A DNA stretch of 61,327 nt from an uncultured Gammaproteobacteria bacterium (GTDB lineage Bacteria; Patescibacteriota; Patescibacteriia; UBA9934; GWF2-40-263), in contig CAYNRK010000002.1 in assembly GCA_964399675.1 (NCBI GenBank), positions 112,982 to 174,308 on the forward strand. Direction: 5' to 3'. The translations under genes were made by a program, and so were the position numbers. Positions 6,827 to 50,925 of the stretch are shown piece by piece (position 1 is the first letter of the stretch; the number at the start of each line of letters is the position of its first letter). The notes below the pieces were generated by a model, which was not told the DNA's origin, did not search any database, and worked only from the letters and a program-made list of their open reading frames with translations.

Positions 6827-6948
6827 TGTCATCTCGAGCGAGACAAAGTCGAGCCGAGAGATCTCGAACATGCGAGATTTCTCCGCTCCGGCCCGTCTGA
6901 CGGGCCTCCGGTCGAAATGACATAATAATTACTCGGTCGAGATAACAA
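6827..6948. repeat. Family B nested palindromic element
   Basis: TGTCATCTCGAG...GAGATTTCTCCGCTCCGGCCCGTCTGACGGGCCTCCGGTCGAAATGACA; core shared with 15983 and 39609. Confidence 0.85.
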
Positions 6949-19184: not shown

Positions 19185-19278
19185 ATTGAGTAAAAAACCT
19201 ACACCAAATATAACAGATTGTCAATGAATAAAATAGGAGCAAAAAATTTTCAAAAAGAAAAACGCCAGGACAGTGTGC

Positions 19279-20582: not shown

Positions 20583-20611
20583 AACCTAGCTATTTTATGT
20601 ATATTTGTCAA
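20583..20611 (-). promoter_or_regulatory. Promoter TTGACA-N17-TAGGTT
   Basis: Upstream of the 415-aa gene. Confidence 0.55.
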
Positions 20612-21976: not shown

Positions 21977-22060
21977 AGTTCCCCTCCTTTTCAAGGAGGG
22001 GTTAGGGGTGGTTATGATTCAGAATACTAACCCCCCATAGTCCCCCTTGAGAAGGGGGAC
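21977..22060. repeat. Family A inverted doublet (intergenic)
   Basis: 40 bp identical to 1097-1136, plus a second inverted unit. Confidence 0.85.
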
Positions 22061-22069
22061 ATTTTAATA

Positions 22070-22788: not shown

Positions 22789-22826
22789 CTTATAAAATAC
22801 TTCACGATCGTGAAGTATTTTATAAG
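22789..22826. repeat. CGATCG-centred perfect palindrome (38 bp)
   Basis: CTTATAAAATACTTCA-CGATCG-TGAAGTATTTTATAAG. Confidence 0.9.
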
Positions 22827-22907
22827 TATTTTGTCTAATCGCCTCGTGGTATCTTTGTGGTATCTTTGTTGAAACAAATCACTAAAACTGATATCCTTCT
22901 GTCACTT

Positions 22908-28402: not shown

Positions 28403-28456
28403 AAAAAACACTTATACCAACCGTGACGATCGTCACGGTTGGTATAAGTGTTTTTT
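28403..28456. repeat. CGATCG-centred perfect palindrome (54 bp)
   Basis: AAAAAACACTTATACCAACCGTGA-CGATCG-TCACGGTTGGTATAAGTGTTTTTT. Confidence 0.9.
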
Positions 28457-38380: not shown

Positions 38381-38413
38381 CTAACCCCTTGTAGCCTCCC
38401 TTGAAAAGGAGGG
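38381..38413. repeat. Family A single unit downstream of tgt
   Basis: CTAACCCCTTGTAGCCTCCCTTGAAAAGGAGGG. Confidence 0.75.
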
Positions 38414-38433
38414 TTTCCTTCAAAATTATGTCA

Positions 38434-39597
38434 CTAAGAAAGTGCGTTACGCAAAGAATGCATGAGATCAAGATAAAAAGCCAAATTGTGGATTGTTGCG
38501 AGTCTTAAAGCCAAAATTTCGTTTACTTGAAAAAGGTGACGTAAATATGCTTTTGATGTTGTTGCGCAAGTGACACATGAACAATGCGGATCAATTGCTG
38601 AATCATCAAAAGCAAATCGTTCGTTTGTGATTCTTGTTTGATTATAAAAATCTAAGCTAACCCCCCTTAATCCCTCCTCAGTGCTAACCCCCCTTAATCC
38701 CCCCTTGAAAAGGGGGGAAAATACTTTGCTTGGATCTTGTTTCCAGGTAAACAAAGTTCCGTGGCGTGCGTTTCGAGTTGGAATAACACAATCAAACATA
38801 TCAACTCCAAATGAAACATACTGAACAATTTCTTCTGGCATACCACCACCCATAAAATACCGAGGTTTGTCTTCCGGTAAATTGTCGCAAGTAAACTTTG
38901 TAAATTTGTAACAGTCTTCGCGCGGTTCACCAACAGACAAGCCGCCAATTGCGTAACCATCAAATCCAATTTCTGTTAATCCTTCTGCTGATCGCTTTCG
39001 CAAATCTTCATGAATTCCGCCTTGGACAATGCCGAAAAGCTTTTGATCATAACCCCCCTTAATCCCCCCTTGAAAAGGGGGGAGATTTTCCTTGCACCTC
39101 TTTGCCCATCTTAGAGATCGCTCCATTGCATCTTCAAATCGATCGTAACTGGATGTTCCTGCAGCAACATCATCAAACTGCATGATCATGTCCGCGCCAA
39201 TTGCAGCTTGCATTTCCATGGATTTCTCAGGAGTGAGTTCGATTCTTGATCCATCAACATGCGACTGAAACAAAACCCCCTCTTCAGTAATCTTATTCAA
39301 CTTTGACAAACTAAAAACCTGATAGCCTCCGCTATCAGTTAAAATCGGTTTATTCCAATTCATGAATTTGTGAAGTCCTCCGTACTTCTTCATTGCATCC
39401 ATTCCAGGTCTTAACAAAAGATGGTAAGTATTTGAAAGCAAAATCTGTGCTCCCAGATCCTCCATGTCTTTTGAAGACATTGTCTTAACCGCACCCTTTG
39501 TTGCGATTGGCATGAAAAACGGCGTTTCAATTTCACCGTGCGCTAGTTTGATTTTCCCTCTTCTTGCTTTTCCAGTAGTTTTTAAAAGCTCAAACAT
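38434..39597 (-). CDS. tgt: tRNA-guanine transglycosylase
   Basis: ETPFFMP, SNTYHL, LTDSGGYQVFS, GIVQGG, GYAIGGLSVGE, DMFDCV, CSCxxC...HN Zn site. Confidence 0.97.
   Translation of the reverse strand: MFELLKTTGKARRGKIKLAHGEIETPFFMPIATKGAVKTMSSKDMEDLGAQILLSNTYHLLLRPGMDAMKKYGGLHKFMNWNKPILTDSGGYQVFSLSKLNKITEEGVLFQSHVDGSRIELTPEKSMEMQAAIGADMIMQFDDVAAGTSSYDRFEDAMERSLRWAKRCKENLPPFQGGIKGGYDQKLFGIVQGGIHEDLRKRSAEGLTEIGFDGYAIGGLSVGEPREDCYKFTKFTCDNLPEDKPRYFMGGGMPEEIVQYVSFGVDMFDCVIPTRNARHGTLFTWKQDPSKVFSPLFKGGLRGVSTEEGLRGVSLDFYNQTRITNERFAFDDSAIDPHCSCVTCATTSKAYLRHLFQVNEILALRLATIHNLAFYLDLMHSLRNALS
38657..38718. repeat. Family A repeat with partial tandem duplication, in frame in tgt (SPLFKGGLRGVSTEEGLRGVS)
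   Basis: CTAACCCCCCTTAATCCC occurs twice, followed by CCCCTTGAAAAGGGGGG. Confidence 0.85.
39050..39084. repeat. Family A repeat in frame in tgt (LPPFQGGIKGG)
   Basis: TAACCCCCCTTAATCCCCCCTTGAAAAGGGGGGAG. Confidence 0.85.
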
Positions 39598-39608
39598 ATC
39601 TTAGACCC

Positions 39609-39767
39609 TGTCATCTCGACCGATCCAATTTTCTTCTTGTCATCCCGAGCGGAGCCCGGCAGCTGCCGGGCGAAGCCGAGGGATCTCGAATATGCGAGAT
39701 TTCTCCGCTCCGGCCCGTCTGACGGGCCTCCGGTCGAAATGACATAATAATACTCGCTCGAGATGAC
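39609..39767. repeat. Family B nested palindromic element
   Basis: Near-identical to the reverse complement of 15983-16144. Confidence 0.9.
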
Positions 39768-39803: not shown

Positions 39804-40856
39804 TTACTCTTTTAAACCCAACTCATCTAACAATTTCTTTTCCTGGCGGCTTAACTTTTTTGGAGTAACAACATTAACCTGAACCATATGATCTCCTCTT
39901 CCGTGTCGAGTTGGCACACCTTTTCCTTTGAGTTTAAATTGGCTGCCTGATTGAGTTCCGGATGGAATTTTTAAATCAACTGTTCCATCAACTGTTTTGA
40001 TTTCAATAGTATCTCCCAAAGCAGCTTGTGTGAATCCAATATCAGTTTGAGTATACAGATCAGATCCATGACGCTCAAAACCGGGATCGCGTCTTACGTG
40101 CAAACGCACAAACAAGTCCCCTGTTTCACCGGCAAGAATTGCCTCGCCTTCTCCTCGCACTCTTAAAATACTTCCGTCTTCTATGCCAGCGGGGATTTGA
40201 ATGTTTAACTTTTTGTGCTCTTTGTTTACTCCTGCCCCATGACAAGTAGAACACTTCTCTTTTGGAACCTCACCTTGGCCATTACACTCTGCGCATGCGT
40301 GCTTGCGCTGCATTGTTCCAAAAACAGTTCTTTGAGCTGAAACCTGAACACCGGAACCATTACATCCGGTACACGTTTTCAAACCCTTTGCAGGCTCGGC
40401 TCCGTTTCCACTACATCGCTCACAATTTTCAGGTCGTGTAATTTCGAGTTCTCGCTCACCACCAAAAACAGCTTCTTTAAATTCTAAATCAAAATCAACT
40501 TGAATGTCTTGCCCGCGACGTTTTTGTTTACGAGTTCTTCCGCCAAAGCCTCCAAAAATGTCTCCAAAAATGTCGCCCAGATCCTCAAACCCAGCTCCGG
40601 AAAATCCTTCAAAACCTTGCCCTCCTCCAAAACCCTGGAAACCCTCAAAGCCGGCTGAGCCAAATTGATCGTACTGTTTTCGTTTTTTATTATCACTAAG
40701 AACTTGATAAGCTTCATTGATTTCTTTGAACTTTTCTTCATTTCCATCCTTTTTATCCGGATGGTATTTATGTGCAAGTTTACGAAAAGCACGCTTAATC
40801 TCATCAAAAGAAGCGCCTTTGTCTACATCTAAAATTTTGTAATAGTCCTTGGACAT
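39804..40856 (-). CDS. dnaJ: Chaperone DnaJ
   Basis: J domain with HPD, G/F region, four CxxCxGxG repeats. Confidence 0.97.
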   Translation of the reverse strand: MSKDYYKILDVDKGASFDEIKRAFRKLAHKYHPDKKDGNEEKFKEINEAYQVLSDNKKRKQYDQFGSAGFEGFQGFGGGQGFEGFSGAGFEDLGDIFGDIFGGFGGRTRKQKRRGQDIQVDFDLEFKEAVFGGERELEITRPENCERCSGNGAEPAKGLKTCTGCNGSGVQVSAQRTVFGTMQRKHACAECNGQGEVPKEKCSTCHGAGVNKEHKKLNIQIPAGIEDGSILRVRGEGEAILAGETGDLFVRLHVRRDPGFERHGSDLYTQTDIGFTQAALGDTIEIKTVDGTVDLKIPSGTQSGSQFKLKGKGVPTRHGRGDHMVQVNVVTPKKLSRQEKKLLDELGLKE

Positions 40857-40870
40857 AGATTCAGAACAAA

Positions 40871-40899
40871 ATGGTACTTTATCTTGGCCTTTTTTTCAA
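40871..40899 (-). promoter_or_regulatory. dnaJ promoter TTGAAA-N17-TACCAT (no CIRCE)
   Basis: Read directly. Confidence 0.5.
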
Positions 40900-40962
40900 G
40901 TGTTGAATCAAAAAAATCTGTTATACTACTTCATACTGATAAAACATTTTAGAACCTTTTAT

Positions 40963-43900
40963 ATGTCCAAACACATGGGGGTTAAACTTTTAAAAACAAG
41001 CGGCATCTTTTTTGCACTATTTATAGCTCTGTCTGCATCAGTTGCATTTGCTGCAGATGGGCCGCGATTTTCAAATGAAGACATTGACAACATCCTTCAG
41101 GCGCAACAAGAAAACTTTGCAATAGTAAAAAAATGCGATGTTGATTCGTTTGTTCCAATGGACCCTGATGGAAGTATTACAAAAATTGAAGTTCTTGGTT
41201 TGGAAGATGGTTATTGCAAATTAAGAGCCCACACATCAACTGAAAGAGCAGAATATTTATTGCCAGAAGAAGTATACAAAAACATTTCTGATATAGAAGA
41301 TTTGTTTAAAGGAGAATGCTCTGGCGACTGTGGAAATGTGGAAGAAGCAAGTGAAGCACCAGAGCCGGCTGATGAAAGCGAACAATGTGTACGAGATTGT
41401 ATTGTTAGAAATTGTAGCCTTAGCTCGTTGGAGTGCGAAAGGCTGAACAAAGACGCATGTGATATTGAATGTTATGGAGAAGCGCCTTCAACAGAAGACA
41501 TGAGTGAGGAGGAGCTTTGTATTTTAGAGTGTGTTGGTGACGATATAATTTGTTCTGCTGGCGAGGGCGGTGAACAAAATCCTGAATGTGAAGAATGTGC
41601 AAACAAATGTTCGGTACTTTATGAAGGGCCGTGTCTGACTGATGAACAATGGAAGCTAAAAGAAACTGCGTGTTTGGCAAGAGGCACAACATGGTCAGCA
41701 GATGAAGTTAAAGGAGATTCTGGTGAAGGTTATCAATGTGTGGTGAATCTTGATTGTGTAGATCATTCTGATGAATGGGGTGATGATGCTGGCACAGGAC
41801 CCGCTAGTTATGAAAAAGGACATGAGCCAAGTGAGGATCAGGTTTATTGGTGGGATTATGAAGAAGAAGAAGAGGAGGTTGAATTAGAAATCGAAGAGGA
41901 AGTAGAAGTTGATCGAATTGACGACAAGCTAATTCTAAAAACAGATGAAACCGAAATTATTGTTGAAGATCGGTCTGAAGAAATAATTGCTGAGTACTTA
42001 GACAAAAATGAACGTGTAGAAAAAATTGAATTGCTAATGGAAGATGAAAAACCAATATATAAAGTTAAAACCATTGAACAAAAGAAGTTGCTTGGTCTTT
42101 TTTCAATAAACATGAGAATAGACAAAAAAATAGATGCCGAGAATCTGGATCTTATTAAGGAAGAAAAACCTTGGTGGGCGTTTTTAACAAGCGAAGAGCT
42201 TAAAGATCTGCGGCCCACTTTTATTAGTCATGAACCTGATCAACAAAAGGATGAGGCAGATGACCTTGCTGAACCAAGTGGATATGGCAGTGATGTCTAT
42301 ACTGGAAAGGCCACAAATGAAGAAGCGCTGGATACTGAACCTTTGGATTATGAAACTGATTGCAGTCCTCTGCCTGAAATTGGTACACCGGAAAATGCAG
42401 TTCTGCAGGATACAGAACTGGGACAACATGCATATTATAATGAATCAGATTGTGAAGTGATCCAACGTGATAGTTACAAAGAAAAAGTGATTGAACAGGC
42501 AGAGGAATACTACAATGAACTTTCCGGAGTTTATCTTCAAATGAAAAATGTTCTTAAAGAAACTGAGGCAAAAGCAGAGGATGCAAAATCAAAACTTGAT
42601 AGATGCATTGGAACTTCTGTTGGTTCAAGCAATAATCAACCAGGAGAAACCGATATAAATCATATTTCAGGCATTCTCATAAAAATGAGGGAGTTGGCAG
42701 TACAAAGCTCAAGCCCGGACATTGCACAACATTCAACTTATTATTCCTCAGACTATGTAGTCTCAGGCAATCTGAATAACATGTACCACTCTATAAGTTA
42801 CGCTTATATTGATTTGTACAAGTTTGACAAAATTAATCTCACCTTGAATAAATATTTGGATTTTGTTTTTGAAGTATGTGAAAGTGGGGCTTGTCTTTCG
42901 CCAGACATGAAAGAACATATTAAAGAAATGATTGAAGAAGATTTGGCGAGTTTACAAGAATTTGTTGATAATGTTTATCAGGATGCACTTGATTCACTTG
43001 AAGCATATGGAAATCTTCAAAGTCGCGTAAAGGAACTGTCTGAGGGTGAGAGTTGTAGCGATTATCTAAATGAGTACTATTATAATTCTAATGGAAAACG
43101 AAAAGAAGGTGGCGCCACTGAATATAATGATCAGGAGCTGCTCGGGGATGTAACTTTTGATGTTGGTATTGAGGATTCTGAAGATGATTCCGGGGTCGTA
43201 AGGATAACGTCAGAAGATGATTCCTATTTATCAAAAGAAGATAATCGATTTATTGTTGAAAAGGAAGATAAGAGTCATGAGTTTGATGAAGATGTGATTG
43301 CCGAACTGATCGAAGAAAAAGGTGAAGATGTTCGAAGTGTTGAGCTTGGTTTCGAAGATGATGAGCCTGTTTTAAAAATCAACAAAATAGAAAAAAAGAA
43401 CTTGCTTGGATTTATTCCAATAACTCTGGAAGAGACATCTATTATTGATGCTGAAACTTTAGAAGAAACAGACATTGACAAACCTTGGTGGGCGTTTTTG
43501 GCAAGTGAAGAAGATGAAAACGAAGAAGAAGCAAGTGAGGAGGAGGAAGATGAGGTAGCCCCAGGCTTTAGCCTGGGCGAAGAGGAGGAAGAAGATGAAG
43601 GGAATAATTGGTTTAATTCTTTATTACTGCTTTTTTCAAATGAGGATGAGGGAGATATAATTTGCGGAGATAATTTTTGTCATGAAAGTGAATATGAATC
43701 TTGCCCGGCTGACTGCACCACAATATGTGGAGATGGAATGTGCCAGACACAGCTTGGAGAGTCATGGAATAATTGTCCGCAAGATTGCGAGCCTTATGAG
43801 GAAGAAGAGATAAATAGCGTATGCGGAAATGGTGTTTGCGAAATGGGAGAAAATCCTGATGTGTGTGCTCAAGATTGTGGGGCTTGCGGAGATGGGCTTT

Positions 43901-45399
43901 GTGGAAATCATGAAGTAATGGCCGGAGATAATTATTGTCCTCTTGACTGTATTGAACCTTGTGGCAATCAAAAATGCATGGGTGGTGAAACTTATTTAAG
44001 TTGTCCTGTTGATTGCGGAATTTGTGGTGACAGTTTCTGTGGTTTTATGGAGAATGCTCAGAACTGTCCAAACGACTGTAAGGGAACGTGTGGAAATACT
44101 ATTTGTGAAATAATGGAAAACTTAGAATCTTGTCCTGTTGACTGTAAACCACCATGTGGAAACAACGTTTGTGATGGCAGTGAAAATCCTGACAACTGCT
44201 GGGTTGATTGTGGACCATCTGAACTTACATATAAAGAGAATAATTGTGGAAATGGTGTCTGCAATGGAGGTGAAAATCCTGAAAATTGTGCAACAGATTG
44301 TGGTTGGTGTGGAGACGGTACGTGTGGATTCGATGAGCTGGCCTCCCTTCTCTGTCCAAGCGACCATCCAATTTGTTTAAAAGACTTTGGAACTTCTCCG
44401 TGGTGCGCAGTTGGAATTGATTGTGGTTCAGATTGTGGAAATGGAATTTGTAATGTTGGAGAAAATTCCAAGTCATGTCCATTTGATTGTTTAGTTTGTG
44501 GAGATGGTATTTGTGCTCTTACTGAAACCACAGAAAGTTGTGAAAATGATTGTCCGGACGTTCTACTTAGTGGATGTGGAGATGGCGAATGCTTGGGGTT
44601 AGAAGACAGTGCAAACTGCGCTGCTGATTGTGCTTCAGGGTGTGAAGATGGAACATGTTCGAGTAAAGAATCAATACTGAGTTGCTCTGCGGATTGTAAT
44701 TTTTCGTGTGGAGATGGCGTTTGCACTGTAGGTGAAGATTGTGATCAGGATTGTGATTTTAATTGTGGAGATGGAGTTTGTTATGGAGCTGAAACTGTAA
44801 ACAGTTGTCCAGACGATTGCTCAATGTATCAACAAAAAGAAATAACTTATGCTGCAGATGGAGAATTTTGTGGTGATGCAGAATGTACTCAAAGTGAAAA
44901 CCAAACAAGTTGTGCATTAGATTGTGAATTTACGTGTGGAGATGGAGTTTGTAGTATTGGTGAAAGTAATGCGTCCTGTAATGCTGATTGCGATCCCTCC
45001 TGTGGGAATGCGCAGTGTGAAGTGGGCGAAGGCAAGGATGTTTGTCCAAAGGATTGCGGATGGTGTGGTGATGGTTTCTGTAGCGAAAATGAAAGCCTTG
45101 AAATTTGTCCACAAGATTGTGATGCATGTGGAAATTGGATCTGCGATTATTTTGAAGATGAAACTTCCTGTTCAGTAGATTGTAAGGTTGAACCAATAAC
45201 AACAAATCCAATGTGCGGCTTTGCAGAGTGCGGGGATGGTCAAGGTTTTTGTGTAAAGAGTTGTGGACTTTGTGGCGACTGGGTATGTGCACCAAGTGAA
45301 AAAGGAGTTTGTGATCTGGATTGTTCTTCTGCGTGTGGAAATGAAATCTGCGAAGCAGACGAGTCAACAGAAAACTGTCCATCTGATTGTTCTTCTTAA
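40963..45399 (+). CDS. Large secreted/surface acidic protein with ~24 Cys-rich CG(D/N)GxC..C..DC repeats and two KPWWAFL-type domains
   Basis: Signal-peptide-like N-terminus (FFALFIALSASVAFA); repeats counted by hand from 43663; start moved to ATG 40963. Confidence 0.85.
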   Translation: MSKHMGVKLLKTSGIFFALFIALSASVAFAADGPRFSNEDIDNILQAQQENFAIVKKCDVDSFVPMDPDGSITKIEVLGLEDGYCKLRAHTSTERAEYLLPEEVYKNISDIEDLFKGECSGDCGNVEEASEAPEPADESEQCVRDCIVRNCSLSSLECERLNKDACDIECYGEAPSTEDMSEEELCILECVGDDIICSAGEGGEQNPECEECANKCSVLYEGPCLTDEQWKLKETACLARGTTWSADEVKGDSGEGYQCVVNLDCVDHSDEWGDDAGTGPASYEKGHEPSEDQVYWWDYEEEEEEVELEIEEEVEVDRIDDKLILKTDETEIIVEDRSEEIIAEYLDKNERVEKIELLMEDEKPIYKVKTIEQKKLLGLFSINMRIDKKIDAENLDLIKEEKPWWAFLTSEELKDLRPTFISHEPDQQKDEADDLAEPSGYGSDVYTGKATNEEALDTEPLDYETDCSPLPEIGTPENAVLQDTELGQHAYYNESDCEVIQRDSYKEKVIEQAEEYYNELSGVYLQMKNVLKETEAKAEDAKSKLDRCIGTSVGSSNNQPGETDINHISGILIKMRELAVQSSSPDIAQHSTYYSSDYVVSGNLNNMYHSISYAYIDLYKFDKINLTLNKYLDFVFEVCESGACLSPDMKEHIKEMIEEDLASLQEFVDNVYQDALDSLEAYGNLQSRVKELSEGESCSDYLNEYYYNSNGKRKEGGATEYNDQELLGDVTFDVGIEDSEDDSGVVRITSEDDSYLSKEDNRFIVEKEDKSHEFDEDVIAELIEEKGEDVRSVELGFEDDEPVLKINKIEKKNLLGFIPITLEETSIIDAETLEETDIDKPWWAFLASEEDENEEEASEEEEDEVAPGFSLGEEEEEDEGNNWFNSLLLLFSNEDEGDIICGDNFCHESEYESCPADCTTICGDGMCQTQLGESWNNCPQDCEPYEEEEINSVCGNGVCEMGENPDVCAQDCGACGDGLCGNHEVMAGDNYCPLDCIEPCGNQKCMGGETYLSCPVDCGICGDSFCGFMENAQNCPNDCKGTCGNTICEIMENLESCPVDCKPPCGNNVCDGSENPDNCWVDCGPSELTYKENNCGNGVCNGGENPENCATDCGWCGDGTCGFDELASLLCPSDHPICLKDFGTSPWCAVGIDCGSDCGNGICNVGENSKSCPFDCLVCGDGICALTETTESCENDCPDVLLSGCGDGECLGLEDSANCAADCASGCEDGTCSSKESILSCSADCNFSCGDGVCTVGEDCDQDCDFNCGDGVCYGAETVNSCPDDCSMYQQKEITYAADGEFCGDAECTQSENQTSCALDCEFTCGDGVCSIGESNASCNADCDPSCGNAQCEVGEGKDVCPKDCGWCGDGFCSENESLEICPQDCDACGNWICDYFEDETSCSVDCKVEPITTNPMCGFAECGDGQGFCVKSCGLCGDWVCAPSEKGVCDLDCSSACGNEICEADESTENCPSDCSS

Positions 45400-45410
45400 T
45401 AAAAATAGAT

Positions 45411-45854
45411 GTGAAAAACAAACCAAACTTAAAAAGAACTTTTTATTCTTTAATAATAATATTCATTTTAATATTGGCTTTTTTCCTACTTCCTGACATA
45501 TCAATAATTGAAAACATCCAACGCAAACTTTTCCTTTTGGCTGCAGTATTGGGATTAATATTCCTCATTCAAGGCACCAGACTTGCATTCATTGCCAGAA
45601 AAGAAAAAGGGTTGTTAAAAATATTTTTAATGTTAACTGGAATTGCAGCACTGGCCCCTTTACCTTTTTCAATACTACACAACGCATTCTATGCCCTGGC
45701 TATAGTTTTTGAAAACTTTGAATTTTTATTTGAAGTGTTGCATGTAGCCTCTTTTATTATAGCTTTAGCTGTGGCGCCGATAACATTTATTGTTGGTGTA
45801 ATAGGAAGCTTAATAATTTTTCATAAAAATAAAAAAGAGGTGGCTACAAGTTAA
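45411..45854 (+). CDS. Small multi-pass membrane protein
   Basis: About 4 hydrophobic helices; probable GTG start. Confidence 0.7.
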   Translation: MKNKPNLKRTFYSLIIIFILILAFFLLPDISIIENIQRKLFLLAAVLGLIFLIQGTRLAFIARKEKGLLKIFLMLTGIAALAPLPFSILHNAFYALAIVFENFEFLFEVLHVASFIIALAVAPITFIVGVIGSLIIFHKNKKEVATS

Positions 45855-45891: not shown

Positions 45892-45986
45892 AAAAATACT
45901 TATAAAATACTTCTCGATCGAGAAGTATTTTATAAGTATTTTTTTCTAAAGCAAAACAAGCCTACTCGGCTTGTTTTGCTATTGTT
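45892..45986. repeat. Module: perfect 52-bp CGATCG palindrome plus AGCAAAACAAGCC hairpin (copy 1)
   Basis: AAAAATACTTATAAAATACTTCT-CGATCG-AGAAGTATTTTATAAGTATTTTT, then AGCAAAACAAGCC-TACTC-GGCTTGTTTTGCT. Confidence 0.9.
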
Positions 45987-46046
45987 ATATTGGACATAGA
46001 AAGAAAGGACGCCCGTTGGCTGAAAAACCAAACGGGCGCAGATGCG

Positions 46047-46313
46047 TAGTGGAGCGACCCGGAGTCGAACCGGCGCCTCCCTTCCAGAAACCCAGCAACA
46101 GCTCTTCCCAACAGGGTTGAGACTTTTCAGTGTGACGGTGAGTCTTTCACCCCTCCGTCCTCCTCCCGCGCCTACCACTACTCGCGGTACTGGTTCAACA
46201 CGGACGCTCTCTGCCTGAGCTAATCCACACTTACTTTAGTGTCAGCCGCTCCTCGACTGATCTATTGCCTTCGTTCCAGAGGACGCTCTTCCCAATGTTG
46301 AGCTTGTCGCCCC
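46047..46313 (-). ncRNA. 267-nt tRNA-like RNA with Ala-type acceptor and an extended anticodon-arm domain (tmRNA-like or intron-containing tRNA; unresolved)
   Basis: 5' GGGGCGA pairs with 3' TCGCTCC-A (G3:U70); GCTC/GAGC D-stem; GGTTCGACTCC T-arm; long-range helices CCTCT/GGAGG, GGAAC/GTTTC, GGCAATAG/CTGTTGCT. Confidence 0.6.
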
Positions 46314-46327
46314 TAACTGCAGATCGA

Positions 46328-46356
46328 AGATTACTTCACCTAAGTGTCCATGTCAA
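46328..46356 (-). promoter_or_regulatory. Promoter TTGACA-N17-TAATCT of the tRNA-like RNA
   Basis: -10 element 14 nt upstream of GGGGCGA. Confidence 0.65.
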
Positions 46357-46375: not shown

Positions 46376-46468
46376 AAAAATACTTTGAAAAAAGTTCACG
46401 ATCGTGAAATATTTTCAAAGTATTCTTCTAAAGCAAAACAAACCTACCCGGCTTGTTTTGCTATTGTT
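46376..46468. repeat. Module: CGATCG palindrome plus AGCAAAACAA hairpin (copy 2), overlapping the YbaK-like stop
   Basis: AATACTTTGAAAAAAGTTCA-CGATCG-TGAAATATTTTCAAAGTATT, then AGCAAAACAAACC-TACCC-GGCTTGTTTTGCT. Confidence 0.85.
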
Positions 46469-50885: not shown

Positions 50886-50925
50886 TTAGCACTCTCTATT
50901 ATAGAGTGCTAATTTTTTCTGTCAA
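50886..50925 (-). promoter_or_regulatory. CIRCE operator overlapping a consensus TTGACA-N16-TATAAT promoter
   Basis: TTAGCACTC-N9-GAGTGCTAA at 50886-50912, a perfect match. Confidence 0.95.

Follow-up and report, generated by a model that had tools for sequence, protein, structure and literature searches.

The closest described system is transfer-messenger RNA (tmRNA; ssrA, RF00023). In tmRNA, the two ends of the molecule pair as an acceptor stem of alanine type (G3:U70, A73) next to a T arm, a large interior is reached through a long helix, and the gene has its own promoter and terminator. The 5' side of tmRNA typically reads GGNUUCGAC and forms a stemless D-loop analogue that is bound by SmpB. 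A G3:U70 pair together with G1-C72, G2-C71, G4-C69 and A73 is expected to give an RNA alanine identity and to make it a substrate of alanyl-tRNA synthetase (AlaRS). Bacterial tRNA-Sec and the allo-tRNAs of Mukai et al. (2017) reportedly have an 8/4 or 8/5 acceptor/T-stem geometry. The bacterial YrlA/Y RNAs contain an internal tRNA mimic, and their ends form a Ro-binding stem. The RNA gene described here is located on a 61,327-nt stretch of contig CAYNRK010000002.1 (assembly GCA_964399675.1, positions 112,982 to 174,308 of the forward strand), which was analysed at its full length and is called the window below. The RNA has an alanine-type tRNA-like closing domain and, as its internal alignments show, is made up of three diverged tRNA-like modules in tandem. 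By the models of the tmRNA, tRNA and group I intron families, it belongs to none of them. The favoured explanation, which is given about an even chance, is that the RNA is a functional, tRNA-derived composite molecule restricted to one Uhrbacteria-like lineage.

The coordinates of the gene and its parts are listed in Table 1, where RNA position p is converted into a window coordinate as 46314-p. The sequence-only reading of this DNA, made by a model without database searches, had reported an RNA of 267 nt. The RNA is present, but its true length is 264 nt, and the longer figure counted the trailing CUA that follows the discriminator A. CCA is not encoded. The predicted transcription start lies approximately 6-8 nt upstream of the mature 5' G. 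The -10 box agrees with TATAAT at three of six positions, and a generic sigma-70 scan overlooked the promoter because of this weak box. There are 10 copies of the motif TTGACA-N16-18-TANNNT in the window compared with 3.0 expected (>3-fold enrichment; 0 of 100 shuffles reach that number), mostly just 5' of genes such as hrcA and murC. This enrichment ahead of genes identifies the motif as the promoter type of the organism. The dedicated promoter of the RNA, which had already been noticed from the sequence, matches this locally enriched type. Further examples of the motif are found at 2239-2267, 19196-19224, 20583-20611 and 50898-50925 (-). The -10 boxes in this genome of the candidate phyla radiation (CPR) often read TAGGTT or TAGATT, which provides a usable promoter consensus.

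The terminator hairpin (-19.6 kcal/mol, z -4.9) begins 10 nt past the 3' end of the RNA. The G+C content of the RNA is 0.576 compared with 0.411 across the window and 0.30-0.35 in the immediate intergenic flanks, and only 2.9% of 264-nt segments are equally G+C-rich. The central 160 nt alone have a G+C content of 0.56. The fold of the whole RNA (-105.4 kcal/mol, z -3.0) is more stable than that of all 200 dinucleotide shuffles. The same RNA sequence is present in nine independently assembled contigs (ENA, JGI, Logan) and is therefore not an assembly artefact. The RNA is an independently transcribable, G+C-rich and stably folding gene.

Table 1. Position of the RNA gene, its structural parts and its flanking elements in the window.
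Feature	Window coordinates	Strand	Remarks
RNA gene	46050-46313	minus	264 nt, G1 (46313) to discriminator A264 (46050)
Promoter	46328-46356	minus	-35 TTGACA (46351-46356), 17-nt spacer, -10 TAATCT (46328-46333)
Intrinsic terminator	45998-46039	minus	hairpin GCGCCCGUUUGG..CCAACGGGCGU (46009-46039), then U-rich tail CCUUUCUUUCU
Acceptor 5' strand GGGGCGAC (RNA 1-8)	46306-46313	minus	carries G3 of G3:U70
Acceptor 3' strand GUCGCUCC (RNA 256-263) and discriminator A264	46050-46058	minus	contains U70
T arm CCGG-UUCGACU-CCGG (RNA 241-255)	46059-46073	minus	fits GGTTCRANTCC
D arm of module 1, GCUC-AACAUUGGGAA-GAGC (RNA 11-29)	46285-46303	minus	GG in loop
Long segmented helix, 5' strand (RNA 31-52)	46262-46283	minus	occupies the place of the anticodon arm
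Module 1 (RNA 1-82)	46232-46313	minus	unit with similarity to modules 2 and 3
Module 2 (RNA 83-186)	46128-46231	minus	degenerate self-contained unit; helix list and repeat alignments
Module 3 (RNA 187-264)	46050-46127	minus	D-arm-like hairpin, long-helix 3' strand, T arm, acceptor 3' strand
Two-hairpin module, upstream copy	46383-46468		overlaps ybaK at its 3' end; belongs to direct-repeat families D4 and D8
Two-hairpin module, downstream copy	45899-45986		between the RNA terminator and the convergent 155-aa open reading frame

In the outer domain, the two acceptor strands, GGGGCGAC and GUCGCUCC, pair over 8 of 8 positions including G3:U70, with a pair probability of 1.0. The T arm consists of 4 bp seated on a G.G pair and a canonical T loop, with pair probabilities of 0.98-1.0. 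Together the acceptor and T stems form the 12 stacked layers of a normal tRNA, which can be read either as 8 + 4 or as 7 + (G.G + 4). The 4-bp D arm lies outside the minimum-energy fold, and forcing it costs just 2.2 kcal/mol. The long helix is made up of three segments (RNA 31-33/234-236, 34-40/225-231 and 45-52/213-220) and encloses 160 nt (RNA 53-212). Its pair probabilities range from 0.4 to 1.0, and those of the innermost segment are near 1. The minimum-energy fold, which comes from a prediction that is not pseudoknot-capable, contains seven hairpins within the central loop. The outer domain is congruent with the sequence-only reading, which had described an alanine-type acceptor with G3:U70 and no encoded CCA, a D stem, a T arm and a segmented long helix replacing the anticodon arm around approximately 160 nt with hairpins or possible pseudoknots.

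The same reading had pointed out two further D-arm-like motifs in the interior. Both are found, GCUC..GAGCGUCC at RNA 94-112 and UUGGGAAGAGC at RNA 203-213. A new result is that they are parts of internal repeats and not isolated motifs. Modules 1 and 3 align between RNA 6-47 and RNA 186-239 with a score of 37, compared with 18.6 +/- 3.5 for shuffled sequences (z 5.3; 0 of 1000 dinucleotide shuffles). In this alignment, GACAAG-CUCAAC---AUUGGGAAGAGC..CUCUGGAACGAAGGC is placed against GAAAAGUCUCAACCCUGUUGGGAAGAGC..UUCUGGAAGGGAGGC. Modules 1 and 2 align with a score of 35 (z 3.2; 4 of 1000 dinucleotide shuffles), with AGUUAGGGGCGACAAGCUCA..AGAGCGUCC-UCUGGAAC (the leader and RNA 1-75) against AGUAAGUGUGGAUUAGCUCA..AGAGCGUCCGUGUUGAAC (RNA 79-148). 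A repeat finder and MAFFT return the same repeat registers. The alignments between the modules show that one tRNA-like unit is present three times in tandem in the RNA, in diverged copies, and these repeats explain the interior.

The modules differ in the parts of the unit that they retain. Module 1 contains, in order, the acceptor 5' strand, a canonical D arm, GAGCGUCC..CUGGAAC, the hairpin CAGUCG-AGGAG-CGGCUG (RNA 55-71) and ACACUAAAGUA. The 6-bp hairpin occupies the place of the T arm. Module 3 contains a D-arm-like hairpin, CUC-AA-CCC-UGUU-GGG-AA-GAG (RNA 193-212), followed by the 3' strand of the long helix (RNA 213-236), and has no acceptor 5' strand of its own. The 5' strand of module 1 and the 3' strand of module 3 form the outer acceptor, and the middle parts of the same two modules form the long helix, aided by the wobble-self-complementary UCUGGA that they share. 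Module 2 contains a possible acceptor-like helix, AGUGUGG/UCACACU (RNA 83-89/179-185), a possible D arm, GCUC-AGGCAGA-GAGC (RNA 94-108), a possible 5-bp stem, UCCGU/ACGGA (RNA 110-114/156-160), with a 41-nt insert inside, and a possible T-like arm, GGUG-AAAGACU-CACC (RNA 163-177), which has a G.G base like the outer T arm. These elements are followed by ACACUGAAAAGU.

Compared with the minimum-energy fold, a cloverleaf built from the helices of module 2 loses 7-9 kcal/mol in stability, and the pair probabilities of these helices are approximately zero. Actual folding of module 2 as a cloverleaf was rejected for this reason, and the cloverleaf is read as a trace of ancestry and not as a fold. 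These values also bear on the possibility that the RNA is a precursor from which RNase P and a 3' endonuclease excise the inner unit (RNA 83-186). The products would be a two-piece alanine acceptor, whose parts stay joined through the acceptor stem and the long helix, and a free 104-nt tRNA-like RNA. Such processing is consistent with the helices open to module 2, in which 7 acceptor-like base pairs would stack on a T-like arm of 4 bp with its G.G base, next to a D arm and a 5-bp stem. The low stability of the inner cloverleaf is not consistent with it, and the UUC required for the elbow is missing from the T-like loop AAAGACU. The precursor explanation is considered improbable.

Among known systems, the RNA works most like the tRNA-like domain of tmRNA, and yet it does not score as a tmRNA. 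It shares with tmRNA the alanine-type acceptor and T arm formed by its ends, the long helix that opens into a large interior, a dedicated promoter and terminator and a predicted alanylation. Unlike tmRNA, it has a true 4-bp D stem, an interior made of tRNA-like repeats, no tmRNA-like tag frame and a length of 264 nt compared with roughly 350 nt. Its 5' side reads AAGCUCAACAUUGGGAAGAGC with the 4-bp GCUC/GAGC stem and is not a stemless D-loop analogue. In an Rfam 15 search of the whole window at gathering thresholds, there is no match at the RNA locus, neither to tmRNA, group I intron and tRNA models nor to any other family. At E<=10, searches of a 1-kb and a 311-nt region return only sub-threshold tmRNA and tRNA-Sec matches and hairpin noise. 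The tmRNA model RF00023 matches only the 3' 107 nt, with 19.1 bits compared with a cut-off of 47. ARAGORN finds no tmRNA in the window at default or lowered (-ps80) thresholds.

The short internal frames are AIDQSRSG*, GNRSVEERLTLK*, ADTKVSVD* and AREEDGGVKDSPSH*. The frame ADTKVSVD had been listed by the sequence-only reading, which saw no recognisable tmRNA tag, and none of the four is ..AA-like or lies after a pseudoknot in the predicted fold. There is no smpB and no other ssrA in the window or within 9 kb past its left end. No further RNA gene is found in those 9 kb, and the right end of the window lies approximately 0.9 kb from the contig end.

The first of the origins that had been suggested for the RNA was a reduced, divergent tmRNA, which would be alanylated, enter stalled ribosomes with SmpB and have a short internal frame translated as a tag. 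An alanine-type domain that closes a long helix round a large interior is the arrangement found in tmRNA, and the partial RF00023 match, although weak, is to that family. The frame GNRSVEERLTLK* has its UAA in the loop of the hairpin at RNA 72-87, as tmRNA stop codons often do, and no other ssrA is present in the approximately 70 kb examined. Against this origin are the RF00023 score, which is far under the cut-off and is confined to the 3' end, the negative ARAGORN result at relaxed settings, the real D stem in place of the loop bound by SmpB and the absence of smpB nearby. No frame has the hydrophobic ..AA-type end of a tag, and no pseudoknot precedes any candidate resume codon in the predicted fold, which would not represent pseudoknots. 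The interior is explained by tRNA-like repeats instead. Canonical tmRNAs are annotated in other CPR genomes. A tmRNA origin is therefore regarded as very doubtful.

In its ends, the RNA also resembles tRNA(Ala). Shared features are the acceptor GGGGC...GCUCCA with G3:U70 and A73, the D stem GCUC/GAGC, whose loop contains GG, and the T loop UUCGACU. Unlike tRNA(Ala), the RNA has approximately 205 nt in place of the anticodon arm, an 8-bp acceptor, a 4-bp T stem and no U8, and it is under the threshold of the Rfam tRNA model. RF00005 gives no match either at the gathering threshold or at E<=10, and there is no anticodon arm. The second suggested origin, a tRNA(Ala) gene that is interrupted by a self-splicing or enzyme-removed intron and yields a normal tRNA after splicing, would account for ends that resemble the 5' third and the 3' third of tRNA(Ala). 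This origin is not supported by the searches. No group I (Intron_gpI), group II or other intron family matches the 311-nt and 1-kb regions at E<=10. ARAGORN returns nothing at default settings with introns of 0-300 nt, and the few calls at -ps80 do not use this acceptor stem. No exon junction restores a 5-bp anticodon stem and a 7-nt loop with U33 and an alanine anticodon, and the sole U-UGC context (RNA 214-218) lies inside the long helix. The non-canonical geometry, with an 8-bp acceptor stem and no U8, also argues against an ordinary interrupted tRNA gene, and this origin is the most improbable of those considered.

The remaining suggestion, a new class of tRNA-like RNA, is the best description of the molecule, but it applies to a single orphan gene for which no second member was found in the collections scanned.

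The RNA is similar to tRNAs of 8/4 geometry (tRNA-Sec-like or allo-tRNA) in its 8-bp acceptor, 4-bp T stem and 12-pair stack. In addition, the D-arm-like hairpin of module 3 resembles the D arm of tRNA-Sec, which has a long stem and a 4-nt loop. Unlike these tRNAs, the RNA has no anticodon stem-loop and no variable arm, and the tRNA-Sec model RF01852 matches only the 3' 80 nt, with several non-canonical pairs and 16.7 bits compared with a cut-off of 47. YrlA/Y RNAs are alike in containing a tRNA-like domain within a larger non-coding RNA. They differ in that the ends of the RNA described here form the acceptor stem, and the RNA has no Rfam match. RNase P RNA, signal recognition particle RNA and 6S RNA were rejected because none has an Rfam match at the locus. 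A CsrA-type GGA sponge was also rejected, with eight GGA motifs compared with approximately seven expected from base composition by a hand estimate.

Tandem tRNA clusters and pseudogene remnants share with the RNA the head-to-tail order of tRNA-like units behind one promoter and ahead of one terminator. Unlike the units of such clusters, those of the RNA are fused without spacers, and only the outermost strands pair, which makes one composite molecule. The main rival to the favoured explanation starts from this likeness. It holds that the RNA is a decaying remnant of a tandem tRNA gene cluster or triplication and that its transcript, if made, is functionless. The promoter and terminator would be survivors of the old cluster, and the losses would comprise the T arm and the acceptor 3' strand of module 1 and the acceptor 5' strand of module 3. 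The ends would pair only because modules 1 and 3 share one ancestral gene. The modular repeat structure itself and the degenerate inner loops are consistent with decay.

Several results weigh against a functional RNA, and the lack of homologs also favours decay. U8 is missing, and the linker between the acceptor and the D arm is A9-A10, or C8-A9-A10 with a 7-bp acceptor. No homolog was found in the collections scanned. The architecture pattern GGGG-N4-V-AGCTC, a 201-261-nt gap and GGTTCRANTCC-N6-CTCCA was scanned together with a close variant. In 185,579 GTDB species genomes, all 34 matches to the pattern are false, and 29 of these are a tRNA-Ile or tRNA-Val followed by a tRNA-Ala. In JGI metagenomes, a refined pattern gives 48 matches, all by chance. 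The JGI scan did not return the source contigs, and the collection scanned therefore does not contain those samples. In IMG/VR, the pattern scans return ordinary tRNAs, coding sequence and one unrelated tmRNA, and a loose 3'-end pattern matches ordinary tRNA-Tyr and tRNA-Ala genes. Nothing was found in phage records by blastn. The RNA is thus an orphan known from one lineage, with no homolog that would make it a conserved family of its own. Over stretches of up to 6.4 kb, the source contigs do not differ at any position (100% identity), and for this reason they carry no covariation or conservation evidence.

The genomic setting is part of the same argument. On one side of the RNA are hrcA, grpE, dnaK, a NUDIX gene and ybaK, and on the other are dnaJ and tgt. 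The nearest homologs of YbaK carry the names Candidatus Uhrbacteria or Patescibacteria. Nine related loci have one or two small genes directly between ybaK and dnaJ, all on the same strand, and they lack the RNA, any T-loop motif and any nhmmer match. In the window, the ybaK-dnaJ interval is a 5.6-kb island that contains the RNA gene, a 155-aa membrane open reading frame (ORF) and a gene for a 1516-aa protein. The RNA is also absent from three loci with homologs of the 155-aa ORF. Its location in a variable island counts against function and favours decay. YbaK has a tRNA-editing domain; nothing ties it to the RNA because it occupies the same position in relatives without the RNA.

Other results are more difficult to reconcile with decay. 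The modules differ by many substitutions and indels, yet the acceptor is paired at 8 of 8 positions, the T loop is canonical and the segments of the long helix are intact. The central 160 nt keep their high G+C content beside A+T-rich intergenic DNA, and the RNA folds more stably than its shuffled sequences (z -3.0). Pseudogenes are expected to be short-lived in streamlined genomes. The outer domain has perfect helices and canonical D- and T-loop nucleotides, whereas the inner copies have lost theirs, as in the T-like loop AAAGACU. Retention of the outer domain during decay of the inner copies is the pattern expected under selection on the outer domain. The intact outer domain and the resistance of the RNA to the A+T drift of its surroundings favour function over decay. 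A decaying remnant is possible but somewhat unlikely.

In the composite RNA, module 1 supplies the acceptor 5' strand and the D arm, and module 3 supplies the T arm and the acceptor 3' strand. Module 2 and the spare D-arm hairpin lie inside, and the ends close into one alanine-type domain. This closing domain has the 8 + 4 pair stack, the pairs G1-C72 to G4-C69 with G3:U70, A73, a GG-containing D loop and a UUCGA T loop. Under the favoured explanation of a functional RNA, and by analogy with tRNA(Ala), tmRNA and alanine minihelices, RNase P would cut at G1 and trim the leader of approximately 7 nt, the 3' trailer would be removed and CCA added, and AlaRS would charge the RNA with alanine. The RNA cannot decode because it has no anticodon arm, and trans-translation is unlikely because it has no tag frame. 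It may act as an alanine donor or a decoy, or the tRNA-like domain may be no more than a handle for the processing and stability of the interior.

A further claim, which is considered unlikely, is that a new kind of tRNA-like RNA, which accepts alanine but does not decode, has its first known member here. It would be made of fused modules and used by a CPR bacterium for a purpose outside canonical trans-translation. Candidate uses would include a dedicated supply of alanine to a non-ribosomal reaction, a decoy that draws off tRNA-binding factors and ribosome rescue by a structurally novel RNA. If it is expressed and charged, the RNA would be tRNA-like and accept alanine without being either a tRNA or a tmRNA, and it would be a clear case of a new structured RNA that arose by duplication and fusion of tRNA units. 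This would bear on the origins of tmRNA-like molecules and on unrecognised translation-related RNAs in the poorly studied CPR. If it is a relic, it is a warning that tRNA-like ends with G3:U70 around a long insert are insufficient to call a tmRNA, and that a check for internal repeats should come before any appeal to pseudoknots or introns.

The island surrounding the RNA has additional features. The segment at 40849-45854 is absent from the related Uhrbacteria loci. The 1516-aa protein is encoded on the opposite strand, is secreted and very acidic, and contains approximately 20 CGDG.C...E....C..DC cysteine repeats with no Pfam match. The 155-aa protein is a multi-pass membrane protein with homologs elsewhere in unrelated contexts, and its ORF is convergent with the RNA. 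A two-hairpin module of approximately 88 nt flanks the RNA gene as a direct repeat with a spacing of 482-484 nt. It consists of a CGATCG-centred palindromic hairpin joined to another hairpin, AGCAAAACAAGCC..GGCUUGUUUUGCU. It is possible that the RNA cassette was inserted within this module or duplicated with it. Similar CGATCG-centred palindromic hairpins are found at 22789-22832 and 28411-28454, and these hairpins are likely bidirectional terminators.

The anticodon of the sole tRNA called in the window (11874-11950, minus strand) leads to the label tRNA-Ser(UGA). The molecule belongs to class I and has a variable loop of 4 nt, the acceptor GGGGCUG/CAGCUCC with G3:U70, A73, an encoded CCA and the anticodon loop UUUGACA (C at position 37), and it scores 29.4 bits compared with an Rfam cut-off of 29. 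The combination of alanine identity elements with a serine anticodon indicates a possible mis-assigning or otherwise unusual tRNA.

The G+C peak of the window is the M17 leucyl aminopeptidase gene at 56345-57823 (plus strand), with approximately 65% G+C compared with 41% for the genome. It has a long spurious ORF on the opposite strand and looks like a recent horizontal acquisition. A 78-nt minus-strand element is present at 6852-6929 and 39674-39751. The two copies are 97% identical, contain the hairpin GGCCCGUC..GACGGGCC and have no Rfam match. One copy lies between dnaJ and tgt, and the other overlaps the start of a 557-aa DUF8128 gene just downstream of secF. Shorter relatives of this element are found at 16096 and 49646. 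Hairpins of another family, with G/C runs (CCCCCCUUGAAAAGGGGGG, flanked by TAACCCC), lie scattered between genes at 1097-1184, 2679-2715, 21977-22063, 38381-38417, 38685-38721 and 39050-39086.

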